Origin: Eledone cirrhosa
Taxonomy: Eukaryota
Length of the DNA stretch: 64,000 bases
Assembly (NCBI GenBank): GCA_964016885.1
Contig: OZ024742.1
Span: 203,298,001 to 203,362,000 of the forward strand
Direction of reading: 5' to 3'
In this document: piece after piece, positions 17,419 through 51,300 of the stretch
How the letters are laid out: every line of letters begins with the position of its first letter
Numbering within the stretch: the stretch's first letter is position 1
The notes under the pieces: model-generated
The model's database searches: none
What the model was told of the DNA's origin: nothing
Seen by the model: the letters and a program-made list of their open reading frames with translations, nothing else
Program-made: the position numbers and the translations under genes

Positions 17419-18555
17419 GGGCGGTGGATTGGCCGATTCCTTAAAGCATCGGGCAACATGCTTTTCAACACTTAGTTACAGCCCTTTATATCCTGATCCT
17501 GAGTTCAAATCCCGCTGAGGTTAGCACTGTCTTTCATCCTTATGGGGTCGATAAAATAAAGTACCAGTATCGGACTGAGGTCAATTTAATCAACTTCCCC
17601 TCTTCCAAAATTGTTGACCTTGTACCTAAATCAGAAACCATTATTAGAGGGCGGTAGGTTGGCAGTATCGGTAGAGGGTCGGACGCCATGCTTTGCGGCT
17701 AGGAGTTACGGCCCTTGTCATTCTGAGTTCAAATCCTGCCGAGGTTAACTTCATCGTTCATCCTTTCGAGGTCGATAAAATAAAGTACCAGTCACGCACT
17801 ATGGTCGATTTAATCGACTTTCCCCTCCCCCGGAATTGCTGGCCTAGTGCCTATATAAGAAACCATTATTGCGGTGGATTGGCAGTATCGGTAGAGGGTC
17901 GGACGCCATGCTTTGCAGCAAAGAGTTACGACCCTTTATGGTCTGAGTTCAAATCCCGCCGAGGTTAACTTTGCCTTTCATCCTTACGGGGTCGATAAAA
18001 TAAAGTACCAGTGATGCACTGGATAATTGCTGGCCTTGTGCCAAAAGTAGACACAATTATTAAATATACTGAGGGAATTGGATTAACAGAATCGTTAAAA
18101 CAACGGACAAAATGCTTTGTAGCATTTAGTTACGACCCTTTCTGGCCTCAGTTCAAATCATCGCGACGTCAGCTTTGCTTTTCATCCTTCCAGGGTCGAT
18201 AAAATAAAGTACCACTAAATTGCTGGCCTTGGACCAAAATTAGACACGGTTATTAAAGAGTACTTCCAGAATGGTGTATTGGCTGAATCGGTAGAACGTC
18301 GGACATGCTTTCCGGTATTTGTTTCTGCTATTTACATTCTGAGTTCAATATCCTACAGAGATTAACTTTGCACTTCATCCATCCGTGGTCGATGAAATAA
18401 AGTTCCAGTTAAGTATCAGTTGCAGCTAATATAATTGATCACCCCTCCCCATCCGGAAGGATGAAAAGAAAGTTGACCTCGGTGGGATTTGAACTCAGAA
18501 CGTCAAGAGGCCAGCATAAATAGCAACTACAGGGAATTTTTCTCCGACGCCAATT
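17419..18555 (+). mobile_element. Head-to-tail array of five SINE family 1 copies plus one inverted copy
   Basis: Copies start at about 17419, 17648, 17871, 18071 and 18272, each with A/B boxes and the central domain. Minus-strand copy at about 18451-18555. Confidence 0.85.
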
Positions 18556-26375: not shown

Positions 26376-26414
26376 TACACGGGTGTGTATGATTGTCTAT
26401 AGAAGATTATATTA

Positions 26415-26787
26415 ATAAGAGGAATTCCAACTTTGTCTGATTTACTCGTATTTTTTTACAATCCTTTAAAATTTATAATGGTATTATAATGAAATAGTAT
26501 GATAGAATATGAAATGTTAAGTGTAAATTGAACAAGTACTTTCATGCTTTCGCAATCTTCATGTTCATAATATGTGGTGACATTCAAGTTTGCAACCTTC
26601 AACAGTTAAACATTGTAAACTTGACTGTCACCACACATTATGAACCTGAAGATTGCGAAAGCATGAAAGTACTTGTTCAATTAACACTTAACATTTAATA
26701 TTCTATCATACTATTTCATTCTAATACCATTATAAGTTTTAAAGGATTGTAAAAAAAACGAGTAAATCAGACAAAGTTGGAATTCCT

Positions 26788-26792
<5 letters not shown>
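26415..26792. mobile_element. Fold-back element (arms about 180 bp, spacer about 17 nt) carrying an HHR
   Basis: 26415-26595 is the reverse complement of 26613-26792 with scattered mismatches; the right end runs into (TA)n. Confidence 0.85.
26641..26679 (+). ncRNA. Minimal type I hammerhead ribozyme motif (39 nt)
   Basis: tgaac-CTGAAGA-t tgc gaaa gca t-GAAA-gtac-TT-gttca. Helix I is perfect, helix II is capped by a GAAA tetraloop, helix III is the palindrome agtact, CUU site. The inverted copy at 26529-26567 has core ATGAAGA. Confidence 0.85.
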
Positions 26793-26827
<35 letters not shown>

Positions 26828-31536: not shown

Positions 31537-31748
31537 GAGTAATTAGATTGAATAGCTTAGCAAATAAATGGATGCCTTAAAGAGAAATTGTTGATTAGGA
31601 TTCGCGGGAAGTAGTGTGTTACTGTGTGTGTAGAAGTTACAAATGTATGTGTATATATAGGTGTTGAGTTAATGTGGCTTGATATTCTGCATGTAGGCAC
31701 GTGTGGTTCTGTGAATATATATATATGTGTATATATATATATATACGG

Positions 31749-32164
31749 AAAAAATGAAACGAAATTTAATTTCCCACTCTTAGTACGGCTGTTACTTAAA
31801 TATAAGTATGTACACGTACATACATATATGTATACAGACGTACAGTAGTATGTATATATATATACATACATGCACACATATATATATGTACGTATGGATT
31901 CACCGAACATTTATTATAATGCTCGGTGTGTTTGTAAACAAACATCCCGTATTAAGCCGTAGTGTCTAGCAACCATATGCACTAGTACAGCGTTCCTTTG
32001 TCAGTGTTGAACAAACGAGCAACGATGGTTGCTAGACACTACGGCTTAATACGGAATGTTTGTTTCCAAACACACCGAGCATTATAATAAATGTTCGATG
32101 AATCCATACGTACATATATATATGTATGCATGTATGTATATATATAGGTATGTACGTGTACATA

Positions 32165-32170
<6 letters not shown>
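31749..32170. mobile_element. Diverged fold-back relative of the 229-1582 HHR family
   Basis: Shares gaaaaaatgaaacgaaattt..cactcttagta.., tatacagacgtacagtag and actagtaca(g/t)cgttcct(t/g)tgtcagtgttgaacaaa. About 31855-31976 is inverted relative to 32025-32140. Confidence 0.75.
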
Positions 32171-32192
<22 letters not shown>

Positions 32193-32199
<7 letters not shown>

Positions 32200-32856
32200 A
32201 ATTAGCATATCTACTAACATATGTATACAGATACATACCTATGCTAGCAAATATATATGTTTTGTCTTAGTAACTTTGTGGTTCTATGCAAGGGGATGCA
32301 GAACAATTATATGAAAGACGTAAATAAGAAAATTATGAAATTGTTCTGCATCCCCTTGCATAGAACCACAAAGTTACTAAGACAAAACATATATATTTGC
32401 TAGCATAGGTATGTATCTGTATACATATGTTAGTAGATATACTAATTCTTTATAATTATCTCCAAATTATTTGTTGAGCAAAACTTGCCGAAATTACTAC
32501 TATGGTTCATGGTAGTGGCTAGGCCCTTGTCTTATTAGCACTCCACTCCTCACTGATTAACCTCAGTGTCACGTGATTGATTCTTTTGAATTTGCCACTG
32601 ACCAAGTAGGCAGTGAATTTGTTCAATGTCTTGGAATTTAGTCCCCGCTCGCTTTTTTCCATCCACTGAATTATTTTTATATAAGTTCCCAGTGTCCTCG
32701 CATTGCCTGGAAGCTTAGCTGAGAATAGACTCCCTGATGACGTAAGGTTTCTCTGTGGGTACGTTCCGTAACCATATTTATTCCCTTACAGAAACTAATT
32801 AGTTGGAGTGAAATCTTAGTAAGTAAGTCGATTTTCATAATTTTCTTATTTACGTC

Positions 32857-32865
<9 letters not shown>
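32193..32865 (+). mobile_element. Non-coding HHR unit of about 525 bp preceded by an inverted segment that spans its head-to-tail junction
   Basis: 32193-32308 is the reverse complement of 32339-32454 (1 mismatch). The spacer 32308-32340 is the reverse complement of the unit end 32833-32865. (TA)n flanks. Confidence 0.85.
32729..32809 (+). ncRNA. Type I hammerhead ribozyme motif
   Basis: actcc-CTGATGA-c gtaagg...ccttac a-GAAA-ctaattag-TT-ggagt. Helix III is the palindrome actaattagt; GUU site. Confidence 0.85.
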
Positions 32866-32920
<55 letters not shown>

Positions 32921-37425: not shown

Positions 37426-40400
37426 TATTATTATTATTATTATTGTTATTATTCTTTGAGTCTCAGTCATTGATGTTAGTTAACTGGAGAGTTTGTTGAA
37501 ATGAATATCAAACCACTACCTGCAGCCTCAGATATTCAGGACGTATCGGAGGGTTCTTGCTGTTCCCAGCAAGCATACCTTTTGAAGCGTTCCAAAAAGC
37601 GTGAAGGGGCCAATTTTCTTTAACCATCCCTGGAAACTTTTTGAGATAGTCCCTAGTGCGCCTATGACAATCGGGATCACTTTGACTTCATGGCAGTTCC
37701 GAATCCTTTTTACCTCCCACTTTAAGTCCTGGTATCGGTTAATTTTCTCCCTCTCCTTCTCTTGCGCTCTCGTGTCGAATGGGCAGGCCACATCCACAAT
37801 CAGGCACGATCTTTTTTCTTTGTCCACAACCACCAGGTCAGGTCTATTGTGTTCCAGTTTCTTGTCCGTCTGTATCCTAAAATCCCACAGCACCTTCACC
37901 TGATCGTTTTCTATCACCGCCTCTGGCTTATGCCCATACCACTTCTCAGAATGTGGTAAATTGTTTACTTTGCATAGGTGCCAGTGGATCACCCTGCCTA
38001 TCACATCATGCCTCCAGCCCTTATAGTGAGTCTGGGCTAGGTGTTTACACTCGGATACAATGTGAGCCACAGTCTCCTCTCTCTCTCCACAGATCCTGCA
38101 CAGTGGGCTAACCTCCTCCTTGTAAATATGGTGTTTCAACCACTTCGTTCTTAGGGCCTGCTCCTGCGCAGCCATTAACATTCCTTCTGTAGCCTTTTTA
38201 AGGTCTCCTCTTTTCAACCAGTTCCATGTCTGTGGATCTCTAAATTCAGTTTTCTCAAAGAAGGTACTATGAAGGGATTTTTCCTGAAGGCTTCTCTTTC
38301 TCCTTGATGTTATTTCCTCCTTGGACATCCCCTGGCCTATTGTTCCCTCCTTCAGTACAGTTCTGAGCATTGGCTCCTTACTATCAGTCACGTATTTGTG
38401 TAGGTTGTTTTTCTCCATCTGAACACAGTCCTCTATGCTGATAAGACCTCTTCCACCCTCAGATCTCCTTAAGTAGAGTCTATCGACATCACTTCTCTTG
38501 TGGAACATGTTGTAGATAGTCAATAGCTTCCTAGTCTTCCTATCCATTTCTTTCTGTTCAGCAACATTCCATCTCAGAATTCCCGAACTGTACCTAATAA
38601 TAGACACAGCTCGGGAATTTACTGCACTTATGGCATTCCTACTGTTCAGATGTGACTTTAATACGCTCCTTACTCTCCGAATGTATTCAGTTCTTATCAA
38701 TTCCTTCATTTTTTTGTTCTTGATGTCATCAGCCCCCAGAACGCCCAAATACTTGTATCCTTCTTCAGAGTCAATTTCCTTTATCATCTCACCTGTTGGT
38801 ACCTGGATTCCGTTACTTCTGCTCAACTTACCCATCTTCATCACAATGACTCCACACTTACTAATACCACATTGCATACATATATCATTGGTGAAAATAC
38901 GGAGTGTCAACAAGCACATCCAACTCTTTCTCACTCTTCCTGAAGAGCTTAAGATCGTCCATGAAGAGGAGGTGATTGATGGTAAGCTCTCCCTTTCCCA
39001 ACCTGTATCCTGCTCTCACTTTTCGCAGTACACTGGTCAGGGGCATCAGGGCAAGGACAAACAACAGAGGGGACAGACTATCTCACTGGAGGATACCTCT
39101 CTTGATCTTCACGCTTCCCAAGGATTCTCCAGTTGATGTTAACTCTGTTTCCCAGGACTTCATACTTTTGCCCAACAACTGTCTGATGTTATCTGCCACC
39201 TTGAAGATCTCCAGGCTTTTGGTGATCCAAGAATGAGGCACCATGTCAAATGCCTTTTTGTAGTCTATCCATCCCATGGCAAGACCAGTGTGTCACCTCT
39301 TGCAATTCCTCATTACCATCTTATCAATAAGTAACTGGTCCTTTGTACCACGTGACTTCTTTCGGCATCCTTTCTGTTCGTCCGGTAACAAGTTGTTTGT
39401 GTGGAGGTGATGGTAGATTTCCTCAGACATAATGATTGTCAACAGTTTCCACATTACGGACAGACATGTGATAGGTCTATAGTTGGTAACATCATTACCC
39501 TTGATTCGGTCTTTCATTATCAGAACGGTGGTACCTTTTGTCAACCACCCTGGTACCTCACCTGAAATCAAGCAGTCATTGAACATGGTTGTCAGTTTCG
39601 GGTGGAGGGATGTTATATTTTTAATCCAATACCCTTGTACACCATTTGGGCCTGGTCATTTCCAGTTGGTTAGTTTTTTAACCTGCCCCTTAAGAGTTTC
39701 AACTGTGATACTCAAATCAGTTTGTTGGTGTGCTTGTTCACTAATCTCCTTCTGTACTTTCTCAATCCACACTGCCTGGTCATTATGTTTAACATCCTGC
39801 TCCCATATTCCTCTCCAGAATGTTTTAGTTTGTTCCGCCTCAGGGATCAATCGTTGCCTCTTTCTATCCCTTCAAGCTGTCCAAACAGCATCTTCTGGTT
39901 GTTGTCGAACATGCGGTTCTGTCTATACTGGCTGACTCTGTACTCGTATCGCCTGATTTTTGCACTCTTTGCTACAATGCGTTGCTTCAGTTCCTCTATG
40001 ATAATATTTAGCTTTTTCCTCCTAGTCTATTTTTAGTGTCTATGTTTTTTAGTGTCCCATTCAGTAGGGACTCAAGCTTTCCAATGTCATTTCTCATTTC
40101 CCCGATTTGACCACTCAGTCGTTTCTTCCACCAAGGCTCTGCTCTTTCTTGTCTGTTGTTTCCTCTCGCTTTTATACCAAGTAGTTTCCTCACCTTATTT
40201 GCTGTTGCTTTGAGGATATTGTTGCACTTGTGAAGGCTCCTCGCCTCAAGGTATGGGATGACTTTGTTTACCTTAGCTGTTGTTTCTTTTAACTTTTTCC
40301 TGTCTACAAATCTTAGGTTCATAGGTCTCCCACTATCATTGTTCAATTCATCTACCACTAAGTTTAGGATATCAACCAAATCTTGCCCTAGCCTATCAGC

Positions 40401-45441: not shown

Positions 45442-46475
45442 CTAACAGTGCTGCGATCGAATGTGGCTTTTTAGCCCAGCCAATGATCTAAAATGTCTTG
45501 CACAGAGTCGGCAACCAAAACATTCACTGGGAATAGTCGGCTGTGGTTGGAGTTCGTGTACCCTTGCATGTCGCTTGAGCCCTCCTGCTGATTTACATTC
45601 TCTACCACATGTTTGGCAAGCATGATGAGTAGCATCTCCAACAGCAGCCTGGTAGTCAACCACTGGTCTTACTTTATGACTGCGAAGATGACTTTCGAGT
45701 CCAGCTTTGCTTAGGCAGAGTCTCGCACAGACGCTGCATGTCAGAACCATAGGAGGACCCTCGCCGTCTGGAAGTGCAACAGCAATGCCCTTCCTCACAT
45801 CCTGCTTTACTTTCTCGTGTGCGATTCGAGATGCCTCAAAGGCAACTTTTCCCTCATATACAGTCTTTTTCCATTTATTACGATCAGCAGCAATATTTTC
45901 CCATGTATCAGCAGAGATGTTAGCGTCTTTCAGAGAGGCTTTCAAGGAATCCTTATACCTCTTTTTTGGTTTATGTGGCGGTCGTTTCCCTTTAACCAAC
46001 TCTCCATAGAAGAGTTGTTTTGGTATTCTAGAATCCTTCATCCTGGCAAGGTGACCACTCCAACGGAGTCGTTGCTTAAGCACAAGAGCTTCTATACTGT
46101 CACACATAGAGCTTTCCAAAATCTCGACATCACTGATGTGGTCCCTCCAGTGAACGCCATGGATCCGTCTGAGACACATCTGGTGGAAACGCTCCAATTG
46201 CTTAAGGTGGCGTCGATATGTGACCCAGGTCTCGCAGGCATAAAGAAGACAAGAGAGTACACATGCCCTGTACACCCTTACCTTTGTCCTCCTGCATATG
46301 TCTCGCCGACCCCAGAGTCGCCTTTCTAGCTTTCCGAAAGCATCACTTGCTTTCCTAATCCTAAGTGAGATTTCACTGTCAAGGTTGCCGTATCGATTGA
46401 CAGTGCTTCCCAAGTAGACAAACTGATCAACCACTCCAAGTCGTTTGCCATACACATAGATGTTTGGTTCAGTGT
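45442..46475 (-). mobile_element. RTE (BovB-like) LINE 3' part; open frame ending in three C2H2 zinc fingers, abutting (CA)n
   Basis: FVYLGS..RIRKASDAFGKL..TKVRVYRACVLSCLLYACETW..LRWSGHLARM..PKQLFYGEL, then CSVC..HLRSH, CQTC..HARVH and CRLC..HIRSQH. Confidence 0.88.
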
Positions 46476-46479
46476 ACTG

Positions 46480-47640
46480 TACATATATACATACATATAT
46501 ACATAGATACATGCATAATGGAACAGTAAAAATATGTAAAACATTCCAAAAATGTTGCGTCTAATAACTGCATATACACATATACAGATGCAAAGCACAT
46601 ATACAACTCAAAACATGCACACATACAATAACATCCATATCTACACATGCATGTATACATACATAATCTATCTAGTTGATGTTGTGTAAATTCCAATGAG
46701 AGAGTCTTGTATGTATGTTAGAAACCGACTCTCTCTCTCTATTGGTAAAACTTTGTGAAATTATAAAACCAGAACATACATACATACATACATACATACA
46801 TACATACATACATACATACATACATAGATACATGCATAATGGAACAATAAAAATATGTAAAACATTCCAAAAATTTTGCATCTAATAACTGCATATACAC
46901 ATATACAGATGCAAAGCAGCTCCCTAATTCATAGTCTACAAATGGCTGCGATAGCTGGTACCTTCAAAATTTGCAAAACATTCTTGCGATTCAAGGGATG
47001 ACAATTTCTTTTCTTTTACAACCTTGCCACCGGGAAGGTGGCCGGTCAAAAAAATATACTCGAAATTAAGAGAAAGAGATAACATACAAACATACATACA
47101 TACATACATACATACATACATACATACATACATACATACATACATACATACATACATACATACATACATGCATACATACATGCCATGCATACATACAAAC
47201 ATACATACATACATACATACATAACATACATACATACACAACTAGTTAGGAAATTACAAGTACAATCCATTAATGGAACAGTAAAAATATGTAAAACATT
47301 CCAAACATTTTGCATCTAATATCTGCATATACACATGTACAGATACAAAGTATATACACATGCACACATACAACTCAAAACATCCACATCCACACATACA
47401 ATAACATCCATATCTACACATGCAGACATGCATACATAACCTACCTAGTTGATGTTGTGTAAATTCCAATGAGAGAGTCTTGTATCTATGTTAGAAACCG
47501 ACTCTCTCTCTATTGGTAAAAATTTGTGAAATTATAAAACCAGAAGAACATACATACATACATACATACATACATACATACATACATACATACATACATA
47601 CATACATACATACATACATACATACATACATACATACATG
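46480..47640 (+). repeat. Array of R4/Dong 3'-end fragments (families A and B) separated by (TACA)n
   Basis: A ends at 46517-46773 and 47239-47548; A/B chimera at 46817-47082. Confidence 0.85.
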
Positions 47641-48309: not shown

Positions 48310-51300
48310 TGTCAACGCGATCAGTTGCATATTTTGGCGTGGGGGACTATGTATTAAATTTAAGATGAATACTATCTCCGACAGTAATGCCACAACTACA
48401 GCCAGGTTGAGTAACTGGTTATTCTTCTAAGTATCCTTCTGAAGACACCTTTTATTCGAATTCGTAGAGATATCCGACTAAATACATAATTCATTTTACA
48501 AGGATTTGCTACAAACACCATGGCTAAACACAACATCAACAAAAAAATTAAGGAAGTATCGAAGACAAATAACAAGGAAGGTAATCAAACTTTATTCAGA
48601 AGAAATCGAAATTATAAATCGCGTTTCTCTTGGAGTTGCCAACTTAATAATTGTTTCTACTTTTGGCACAAGGCCAGCAATTATCCAGTGCATTACTGGT
48701 ACTTTATTTTATTGACCCCGTAAGGATGAAAGGCAAAGTTAACCGCGGCGGAATAACTTAATAAGGATTTATTTAATTGTTATAAAATGGCAAAAAACAA
48801 TCCCTCCATTGGCTATATGAATAGAATGAAGTTACACTGGGACTAAATGCACCCAGAGCTAAATTATTTCACAGCGAAACAATTACGCCAACAAGCGACG
48901 TTTGTTGAACGTAAAAATAAGATAAATATTATTAATTGTAAGTCCCCCACAACAAACATGTTATCAACAACACGTGCTACAGGTCGCCACACTACTAGAC
49001 TTCCTAGCAGCCAGGTCTAACAGCGCCTTGAAACAACTATGCCTGTAAGAAACTTGACACCACCTGTACCATCTAAGTCTACCCCGAATGCTGGGGAAAA
49101 CACTATCGATAATAATAATAATCGAAGAAATAATAATAATAATCGAATAAATGTGACACCACGTATACCATCCGAGTCTACCTCGACTGTTGTGGAAAAT
49201 ACTATCGATAATGATAATCAAAAGTATAAACAATTGAAAATTTCCCTCAACGAAATCTTCCAGAGAGAAATTAACTCATGTATAAATATCTCTCTCGCTG
49301 AACGTGTTAAAATGACAATGGTGAATAAAAACCCAAATAATGAAATACTACGTGTTATTGACGAAATAGGGGATGAATATTTACGACGGATAAAAACCCT
49401 AACATTTTGACAAATCAACGCCTGTTTATATGCCTTAGCAATGACTGAAGCATTATCTTGGTGATAGCAGAGATATTAACAAGAACAAAACACCACCAAA
49501 AATACCATCATATATAACTAAAATAGAAAAAAAGAGTGCTGACCTACGAAAAAACATAGGATAAGTGACAATGTTCCTTACATGCAAACAAACACAAACA
49601 AATCTCACTCCTCACCAACAAAGAGTGAAAAATAAAATAGAGACGATGTTTGGTAACAGTAGAACCAGAACTCTCCAATATAAGCTGATCACCCTCAAAC
49701 AAGAATTGAGAGCTGTTAGCGAAAAACGCCGATACCTGAACAAAGTAGATGAGAGAAAAGTGCTTAATAAAAGATTCAGACGAAACCAAACATCAGTCTA
49801 TAGAGATATGAAGGGCAAAATAATAAGTGTCACTGGGGCCCCATCCCAGAAAGACATAGATTCCTTTTGGAGAAAAATATGGGGTGAAAAGAAGAATTTC
49901 AACCAAGATGCAGTGTGGCTAAGAAAAATCCGAAAGAACTATTGCTCCTACACTACAACAAAAACATACGAAATAAGTGAGGGTACCCTTGAGACTGTGA
50001 TAGGAAAACTCCAAGATAAGAAAACACCAGGAAGAGACATGATTGTCGGCTACTGGTACAAAAAACTAATATTCTATCGGAGGTATCTTACTGACCTCTA
50101 CCAACAAGTTCTTAAGGGAGATACACTTATACCAGAATGGTTGACATTAACACAAACGTTACTGGTCCCCAAGAACAATCACACCCACTTGGCAAAAAAC
50201 TACCGACCCATTGCATGCCAGAACGTGATGTATAAGATGTATACAGCCTGCCTGAACCTATTCCTCCAAGATCACTGCGAAAATAATAAAATTATCACAG
50301 ATGAACAAGCAGCTGGAAAGAAAGGGGTTTGGGGATGTGCTGAACAACTCCTAATCAACAAAACTGCGATGTCGGAGGTGCGACAACTTAGGAGGAATAT
50401 GACTACAGTCTTGCTGGACTACAGGAAAGCTTTCAATTCTGTTCCCCACTCTTGGATGATAGTGGCCCTCCAACTTGCTAAAGTCCCAGACAGGCTGTAT
50501 TCTTCTTGGGCTACTATCCTAATGTTAAAGACAGAGAGGGGGGGACTCTATTTTTACTGATAAAATAAAATATTGCAGGGGTATATTTCAGGAGGACAGT
50601 CTCTCTGTGATATTGTTCATCTTGTCATTAAACCCCTTGTCTTTTCTGCTCAAGAAATGTGAGGGATACATCATTGGATCACAGAAGGACAGAAATACGA
50701 ACCTAACCCATCATTTCTTTGTGGACGATCTGAAACTCTATGCCAAGAACATGGATTTGATGAAGAAAAATCTTGACCTGCTTACAACGTTCTCAAAGGA
50801 TATAGGAATGGAGTTTGGCCAAGATAAATGCTCATACATGACTGTAAAGCGGGGGAAAACAACAACCCAATCTAGCAACATTGTCATCAATGGCCTAACT
50901 GTTTCACCGATATCTGATGAGGACTGCTTCAGATACCTGGGAATAGATGAGAACGTATCCTATAATGGTATCTGTAATAAAGAACGCGTAACCAGGGAAT
51001 ACTACACCCGATTAAGAAAGATATGGTAATCGGAACTCTCTGCGCAAAACAAAACAGTGGCTCACAATGTGTTTGCTGTGCCTGTCCTAACACCAACGTT
51101 TGGAATACTCAGTTGGACGATAGACGAAATCTGAGCAGTTGATGTTGGAACTCGAAAAATACTGAACAACACCGGAAACTTCCACATCAACAGTGACATA
51201 GACCACCTTTATTTGAAACGTAAGCAGGGAGGCAGAGGCCTAACATCAGTCCAGACAACATTTGAATGTCGCATCATATCTCTCCGACAACATCTACGAA

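Follow-up and report, generated by a model that had tools for sequence, protein, structure and literature searches.

A 526-nt hammerhead repeat inserted in (TA)n of Eledone cirrhosa, probably a non-LTR retrozyme reverse-transcribed from circular monomer RNA

Positions 32193-32865 of the window, the whole 64,000-nucleotide stretch of contig OZ024742.1 analysed here, hold one of thousands of copies of a 526-nt non-coding hammerhead repeat lying in (TA)n. The element is inserted at the right end of a copy of another hammerhead repeat, family B, and the structure in the window is not due to chance. Unit positions u1-526 correspond to window positions 32339-32864, and the locus comprises the following features:

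32167-32196, no strand: left (TA)n target run, which doubles as the right end of the neighbouring family B insertion
32193-32340, minus strand: outer arm, 148 nt (u495-526 followed by u1-116), with the outer of the two fixed 3' ends (u116) lying in (TA)n
32339-32865, plus strand: inner arm, a complete unit of 526 nt (u1-526), with the inner of the two fixed 3' ends lying in (TA)n
32339-32454, plus strand: tail (u1-116), a stretch of 116 nt that separates the two start sites and that the inner arm reads through
about 32392-32441: predicted AU-rich hairpin in the tail
32451-32454: outer start site, TATA
32729-32809, plus strand: type I minimal hammerhead, its stem II extended and its stem III palindromic, predicted to cut after 32804 (u466|467)
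32808-32865, plus strand: predicted hairpin (z -2.7) just before the inner start site, then ATATA common to the target
32861-32920, no strand: right (TA)n target run, into which the forward unit merges

The two arms are joined head-to-head with an overlap of 2 nt. In the reverse complement of 32193-32340 the first 33 nt match 32833-32865 exactly and the remainder has a single mismatch to the forward unit's first 115-116 nt (99%), just as the sequence-only reading had described the inverted block, as unit end joined to unit start. That reading had also seen correctly that the unit end merges with (TA)n: ATATA is shared with the target there and TATA at the outer end, so that both ends of the copy have 4-5 nt in common with the target. 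No target-site duplication is discernible in the right (TA)n run (32861-32920), and no ORF of at least 120 aa was found across 32193-32865. The 526-nt element has no ORF for a reverse transcriptase (RT) with GIY-YIG, the mark of an autonomous Penelope-like element (PLE), and a tRNA or B-box origin of the unit was dropped, none being detected. LTR retrozymes of the plant type are recognised by a type III hammerhead in the LTRs, PBS/PPT and a 4-bp duplication; the element in the window shows a type I hammerhead, no internal region and (TA)n flanks.

Each 526-nt unit bears a type I hammerhead, as judged from its motif, and its cleavage is predicted only. In the window copy predicted stem I is formed by ACUCC/GGAGU, the core CUGAUGA lies at 32734-32740, predicted stem II pairs 32742-32747 with 32784-32789, GAAA occupies 32791-32794, and a palindrome at 32794-32803 precedes the predicted cleavage after U32804. 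Rfam gave nothing at gathering threshold and no hammerhead among 51 weak matches, which were set aside as microRNA-type matches to the inverted repeat, and the minimum-energy fold yields stem II, not the full hammerhead. In 27 diverse copies, picked from 253 by a pattern that fixes the hammerhead core, whose columns therefore carry no weight, 95.8% of cells are paired and 5 of 17 pairs changed on both sides; at least five such pairs were reached in 9 of 500 shuffles, and none of 500 shuffles had as high a covariation score. With Rfam silent and the minimum-energy fold incomplete, the term 'intact', which the sequence-only reading had used for 32729-32809, thus rests on the readable motif and on covariation. 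The window hammerhead fits the consensus for PLE minimal hammerheads in the available text of PMC4209133 save for one extra A before GAAA; CUGANGAH, G10.1-C11.1, a 6-bp helix II, a palindromic helix III and a short helix I are common to both, and the present one is further set apart by a long loop II in two parts, whose inner helix covaries. Across the 253 motifs CUGANGA is followed by C (220), A (29) or T (4).

The genome searched comprises 3.0 Gb in 1,796 contigs. An exact pattern count gave 9,169 ribozyme cores of 22 nt, 1,212 copies of the outer end followed by (TA) and 286 of the inner end followed by (TA), with a control count of 0 in each case. The loci examined were similarity matches to the window copy together with 120 pattern-anchored loci from contig 1, of which 90 were taken from the 1,212 outer ends and 30 from the 286 inner ones; the dispersed sets exclude array loci and retain a few segmental duplicates. 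A period of 526 nt holds from dimers to a 153-unit array, with 2-13 units in dispersed multi-unit copies, and the u526|u1 junction recurs with 96-98% identity at 39 of 39 other places scored. Four sequence runs, made up of contigs of unrecorded kind, attest the family's presence and nothing beyond it. Older subfamilies with 70-88% identity (L363-L369) retain both fixed ends and the ribozyme core, and some older subfamilies have longer units (core spacings of about 540-570 nt). Our literature searches returned no description of the 526-nt family or of an insertion-level test of unit identity; Repbase, Dfam and several paper supplements were outside their scope and could list the family.

Throughout the family, insertions consist of two head-to-head arms, in each of which, on the ribozyme-sense strand, the 3' end is fixed and the 5' end varies, and the two fixed 3' ends, outer u116 and inner u526, lie 116 nt apart. 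In a set of 251 arms, the end lies at u116 or u526 and borders on (TA) in 212; 16 arms of the set were recorded as ending at one of these sites without adjacent (TA), and 39 as ending at neither. Among 128 arm pairs 93 are outer/inner, 2 outer/outer and 0 inner/inner, and 33 include an unclassified arm. The loci anchored on an outer end (58) gave 39 outer/inner and 1 outer/outer pair, those anchored on an inner end (20) gave 15 and 0. A further 44 arms have no partner, and no clear direct join to a PLE or family B end was seen in them. Circularly permuted ends, foreseen by the sequence-only reading, were looked for across copies and are absent: the 3' ends are fixed at two sites and only the 5' ends vary. 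The same reading had counted fixed linear ends, with the junction never found, as evidence against it; fixed 3' ends were indeed found, and the junction is present at the 39 other places.

Copies that read through the start sites carry TATA at u113-116 and ATATA at the inner site. By eye, 10 of 10 start sites of five families (the 526-nt family, family B and three autonomous types) match (TA)n by 3-7 nt and lie after a pyrimidine-rich run. For the 526-nt family we infer priming by pairing with (TA)n. A longer ATATATAT at u51 and TATATA at u340 are not used as fixed 3' ends, suggesting that the start sites are chosen by a protein or by structure; hairpins are predicted upstream of both. Two possible signatures of a circle, arms that stop at the site of the other primer and arms that stop after one turn exactly, are not enriched (2/58 and 3/96, in 12-nt windows), and the exact one-unit arm in the window is thus probably due to chance.

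The u526|u1 join is to be read as the inner start site read through and not as any RNA's end, and the unit's 'start' in the window copy as a mere 5'-truncation point of its arm. The sequence-only reading had put the unit at about 525 nt, close to the period of 526 nt, and had taken the end-to-start junction for joined RNA ends; here its 'end' is the inner RT start site and its 'start' a 5' truncation. Since a linear self-cleaved monomer, running from u467 round to u466, contains u526|u1 as well, this join is uninformative on a circle, and RNA reads across it would not distinguish a circle from RNA transcribed off the numerous tandem copies in the genome. The informative join is the hammerhead cut site, 32804|32805 (u466|467). 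What holds of the claim of a circular or head-to-tail template is that it exceeded one unit, as seen from the 642 nt of 526-nt repeat that the two arms in the window cover together, the 2-13-unit copies and the 153-unit array; re-copying of one monomer is favoured by the family-wide tests described below.

Among 129 arms from pattern-anchored loci 104 reach the cut site, and 96 of these 104 cross it, 22 twice and 3 three times. Indel openings at the cut site numbered 12 versus 29 expected, in a sample partly chosen by the cut-site region. 5' stops at the cut site were found in 11/132 arms versus 3/132 of the other arm class at the same distance (p=0.025), and in 14/225 versus 3/227 when all loci were used (p=0.005). 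This distance-matched comparison supersedes a first estimate (11/135 versus 4.4), which was dropped as confounded by short arms and by a second 5'-stop peak at u46-57 (10/111), the place at which ATATATAT of the unit itself is joined to (TA)n. The frequent crossing and the modest excess of stops imply that most templates were continuous over the cut and that a minority ended or stalled there.

To compare units within insertions we used arm positions from the same RNA coordinate as internal control for positions one unit apart; 43 of 93 insertions had enough overlap for the divergence test. Differences amounted to 308/9,775 in the same-coordinate control and to 302/8,824 and 447/11,027 in the shifted comparisons, whose total of 749/19,851 is slightly more divergent than the control (paired p=0.25, with 27 of 43 insertions showing the opposite). 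Between insertions divergence is 9.7% on average and 2.8% to the nearest neighbour, and passes within an insertion differ by 3.4-4.1%. Nearest neighbours are thus about as close as passes, so that divergence leaves room for young, homogeneous linear sources. At 69 polymorphic columns random insertions disagree in 42%, successive passes in 48/1070 (4.5%) and 84/1607 (5.2%), combined 4.9%, and the same-coordinate control in 56/1644 (3.4%). Subfamily alleles are common to passes in 83-86%, as compared with 90% in the control and 16% in random pairs, and the arms of one insertion agree on them in 517/573 cases. A three-way test over 4,954 columns with neighbours as outgroup gave an even distribution of singletons (59/65/76), 14 derived variants present in all passes, and 3 columns with the pattern of unlike units typical for a linear template, versus 5 and 3 in the controls; 3 further columns held two different derived letters. 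The 14 variants seen in all passes may stem from unsampled close relatives. Taken together, this suggests that the units following one another in an insertion behave like copies of a single monomer. The lengths of the two arms show no correlation (rho -0.10), and as both arms can exceed 700 nt an origin from one RNA would need strand displacement.

The longest array found has these coordinates:

C5:84,645,775-84,726,568 (L124-L132): head-to-tail array of 153 near-full units, 81 kb

It has a 7-unit higher-order period at its left end, holds 49 exact cores and terminates at the outer site and (TA)n. On the left it begins with a directly joined, inverted arm of family B, and the array is possibly a two-family insertion. 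As a master source it was rejected: adjacent units differ by 5.5%, it is the nearest neighbour of 0 of 83 dispersed copies, and 7 of its 8 alleles are carried by only 2 of the 83. A star-like origin of long arrays was rejected for this array and for L358, which has 68 shared variants versus about 23 expected; L361, with 4 near-full units, is star-like (53 singletons, 0 shared). Middle units have variants in common in L359 and L375, L376 displays a gradient, and L360 and L361 lack such sharing. The shared variants in most arrays of at least 4 units look as if from later DNA duplication or from a heterogeneous source. Core counts on the two strands are 4,898 and 4,271, an imbalance of 627 that exceeds the 49 cores of the C5 array, so that more arrays may exist; a multimer search with an older multimer, with 40 of 3,754 candidates scored, found only a 13-unit array and 3-4-unit copies.

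The window holds at least three more ribozyme repeat families. Family B, at 31746-32166, is a second hammerhead repeat with a unit of about 420 nt and U.U at the base of stem II; it has the same two-arm layout, with two fixed ends about 60 nt apart. A relative of it at about 400-1600 has a 498-nt period, hammerhead motifs at 763 and 1261 and an inverted arm that ends at 624. Family C (26378-26795), flanked by (TA)n runs, is a two-arm inverted insertion that carries a minimal hammerhead at 26640 and has one arm with a longer end. Its motif also occurs in five GIY-YIG loci (L187, L191, L192, L195 and L203), in three of them (L191, L192 and L195) about 380-400 nt after the ORF, and family C may be the end of an autonomous PLE. 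Elsewhere in the window, 45445-46560 on the minus strand holds an open frame of 372 aa that matches C2H2 zinc fingers and is probably a zinc-finger gene exon; 49565-51026 (plus) and 37531-39015 (minus) hold fragments of reverse transcriptase in two frames and a frame that matches zf-RVT weakly, and are probably decayed LINEs; and 17499-18020 holds 2.4 tandem copies of a 220-nt SINE-like unit, which we take to resemble cephalopod SINEs.

PLEs co-occur with the 526-nt family in this genome, as seen from 150 scored of 10,596 GIY-YIG candidates. The ORF-bearing ones contain an RT, a CxxC linker and, at the C-terminal end, GIY-YIG, and appear Neptune- or Nematis-like by the descriptions in the available part of PMC8557442; all five loci with both ends visible have one inner and one outer end. 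Seven young copies (L188, L189, L190, L193, L197, L199 and L200) with ORFs of up to 938 and 1,096 aa, stop to stop, have near-identical inverted ends and (TA)n targets and are candidates for the mobilising enzyme. Among 50 GIY-YIG loci (of the 10,596 candidates) no autonomous partner with shared sequence or terminal repeat was detected; two of the 50 hold older unit copies near an ORF, that of L196 being set off by (TA)n. The tail measures 116 nt in the 526-nt family and, as judged by eye, about 36, 37-40 and 65 nt in autonomous PLEs of this genome and about 60 nt in family B.

We consider it somewhat probable, on the sequence data at hand, that the locus is a young insertion of a non-LTR retrozyme, reverse-transcribed from a circular monomer RNA by a borrowed Penelope-like RT-endonuclease. 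A multi-unit copy would be transcribed, dimer-type hammerheads would cleave the transcript and the monomer would be ligated. A GIY-YIG PLE protein, probably of the Neptune type, would nick both (TA)n strands, each DNA 3' end pairing by 4-5 nt with UAUA at one of two protein-selected sites. Both RTs would then make between 0.1 and about 3 turns, displacing strands if they share one RNA, and head-to-head joining of the two truncated cDNAs would follow. A minority of templates would be linear RNAs ending at the cut site, and long arrays would grow later through DNA-level duplication. The fuller version, which we advance tentatively and would not bet on, is rolling-circle reverse transcription of a ribozyme-made 526-nt RNA circle, on which an asymmetric Penelope-type complex primes both nicked (TA)n strands by 3-7-nt microhomology at two fixed sites of the same circle, one per strand. 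If true, two-site priming on one circle would account in a single step for both the tail and the inverted terminal repeat of PLEs, and at least three more ribozyme repeat families in the window appear to take that route.

The same enzyme and start sites could instead act on an uncleaved linear multimer transcribed from young multi-unit copies or from unfound subfamily arrays, the hammerhead merely trimming some RNAs. We regard this as rather unlikely, even though multi-unit copies and arrays exist, the strand imbalance of cores hints at further arrays, dimer-type hammerheads cleave poorly and unprocessed RNA is the substrate of the in vitro PLE system (available text of PMC11167929). The 2.8% difference between nearest neighbours, the slightly higher divergence of shifted comparisons and the excess of 5' stops at the cut site, which includes second and third passes, point in the same direction. 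However, the pattern of a linear template is not in excess (3 versus 5 and 3), 14 rare variants are present in all passes, subfamily alleles are shared across passes nearly as often as in the control (83-86% versus 90%, random pairs 16%), and the C5 array is not the source; moreover, a purely linear cycle should be unable to spread one new mutation to every unit and should lose length at each 5'-truncated round. Multi-unit arms might also arise from a linear self-cleaved monomer if the RT, on reaching the RNA 5' end, jumped to the 3' end of that monomer or of a different one. Jumping within one molecule would account for homogeneous passes and for stops at the cut site, and arms in L287 and L357 start exactly at u467; base-precise jumps would be required, however, given 9,169 exact cores that span the cut, and with cut-site indels below average (in the sample partly chosen by region) and 96 of 104 arms crossing we judge this explanation improbable. 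An event at the DNA level, be it a local inverted duplication or the RNA-free spread of satellite or extrachromosomal DNA circles, seems barely credible to us. Long arrays do show DNA-level duplication, but such an event would not be expected to leave 3' ends fixed and 5' ends variable on the hammerhead-sense strand, to pair outer strictly with inner ends, to target (TA)n or to produce the layout that ORF-bearing PLEs also have, and the ribozyme structure covaries.

In LINE-1 twin priming the second target strand primes internally, giving rise to a 5' inversion. Unlike there, the 526-nt family has its second site at a fixed position 116 nt inside, and its two arms can each be long, with overlapping sequence. 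Endonuclease-positive PLEs of the Neptune/Naiad style, according to the available text of PMC8557442 and PMC3846280, share with the 526-nt family partial tandems, an inverted 5'-truncated copy, a tail at one end, a (TA)n bias and no discernible target-site duplication; the 526-nt family differs in having no ORF, a tail of 116 nt versus 30-40 nt and a repeat unit that makes up the whole element. For the anole Poseidon element PAc the tail is the stretch between two RT start sites (PMC11167929, as far as available). PAc and the 526-nt family are alike in their two internal RT start sites, cleavage and extension of both target strands, an AT-rich target and a hammerhead near the start sites. According to the same part of that paper PAc primes without homology in vitro, with no strand difference in the start site and with RNA ends not seen at the cut site, and its substrate there was unprocessed RNA; here both sites match (TA)n by 4-5 nt, each site serves one arm, and 5' stops are modestly enriched at the cut site. 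The 526-nt family thereby departs from the sole in vitro PLE system on microhomology.

The class of the element is already known, and by its testable sequence features the 526-nt family is a further member, an animal non-LTR retrozyme. As in the retrozymes described in the available text of PMC7229834 and bioRxiv 10.64898/2026.07.22.740005, it is a non-coding head-to-tail repeat with one type I hammerhead per unit, low GC, thousands of copies that range from monomers to large arrays, and co-occurring PLEs. Its unit of 526 nt is larger than the roughly 300-bp monomers of the former and lies within the 51-972 bp of the latter; in both, expression and circles were shown, which for the 526-nt family are predicted. 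A cycle of RNA circle and subsequent tandem cDNA has been proposed, with animal retrozymes spreading via RNA circles copied by Penelope-like enzymes (PMC7229834, available part); neither source, in its available part, maps insertion ends, inverted arms or unit identity within insertions. Mechanism and origin of the tandem and inverted ends of PLEs are stated as open in the available text of PMC8557442, PMC11167929, PMC7229834 and bioRxiv 10.64898/2026.07.22.740005. To these systems the 526-nt family adds over a thousand young, mappable insertions whose two arms are an internal clock, and it supplies a minimal substrate, defined start sites and candidate enzymes in the same genome, by which the question of circle versus linear template becomes directly testable.
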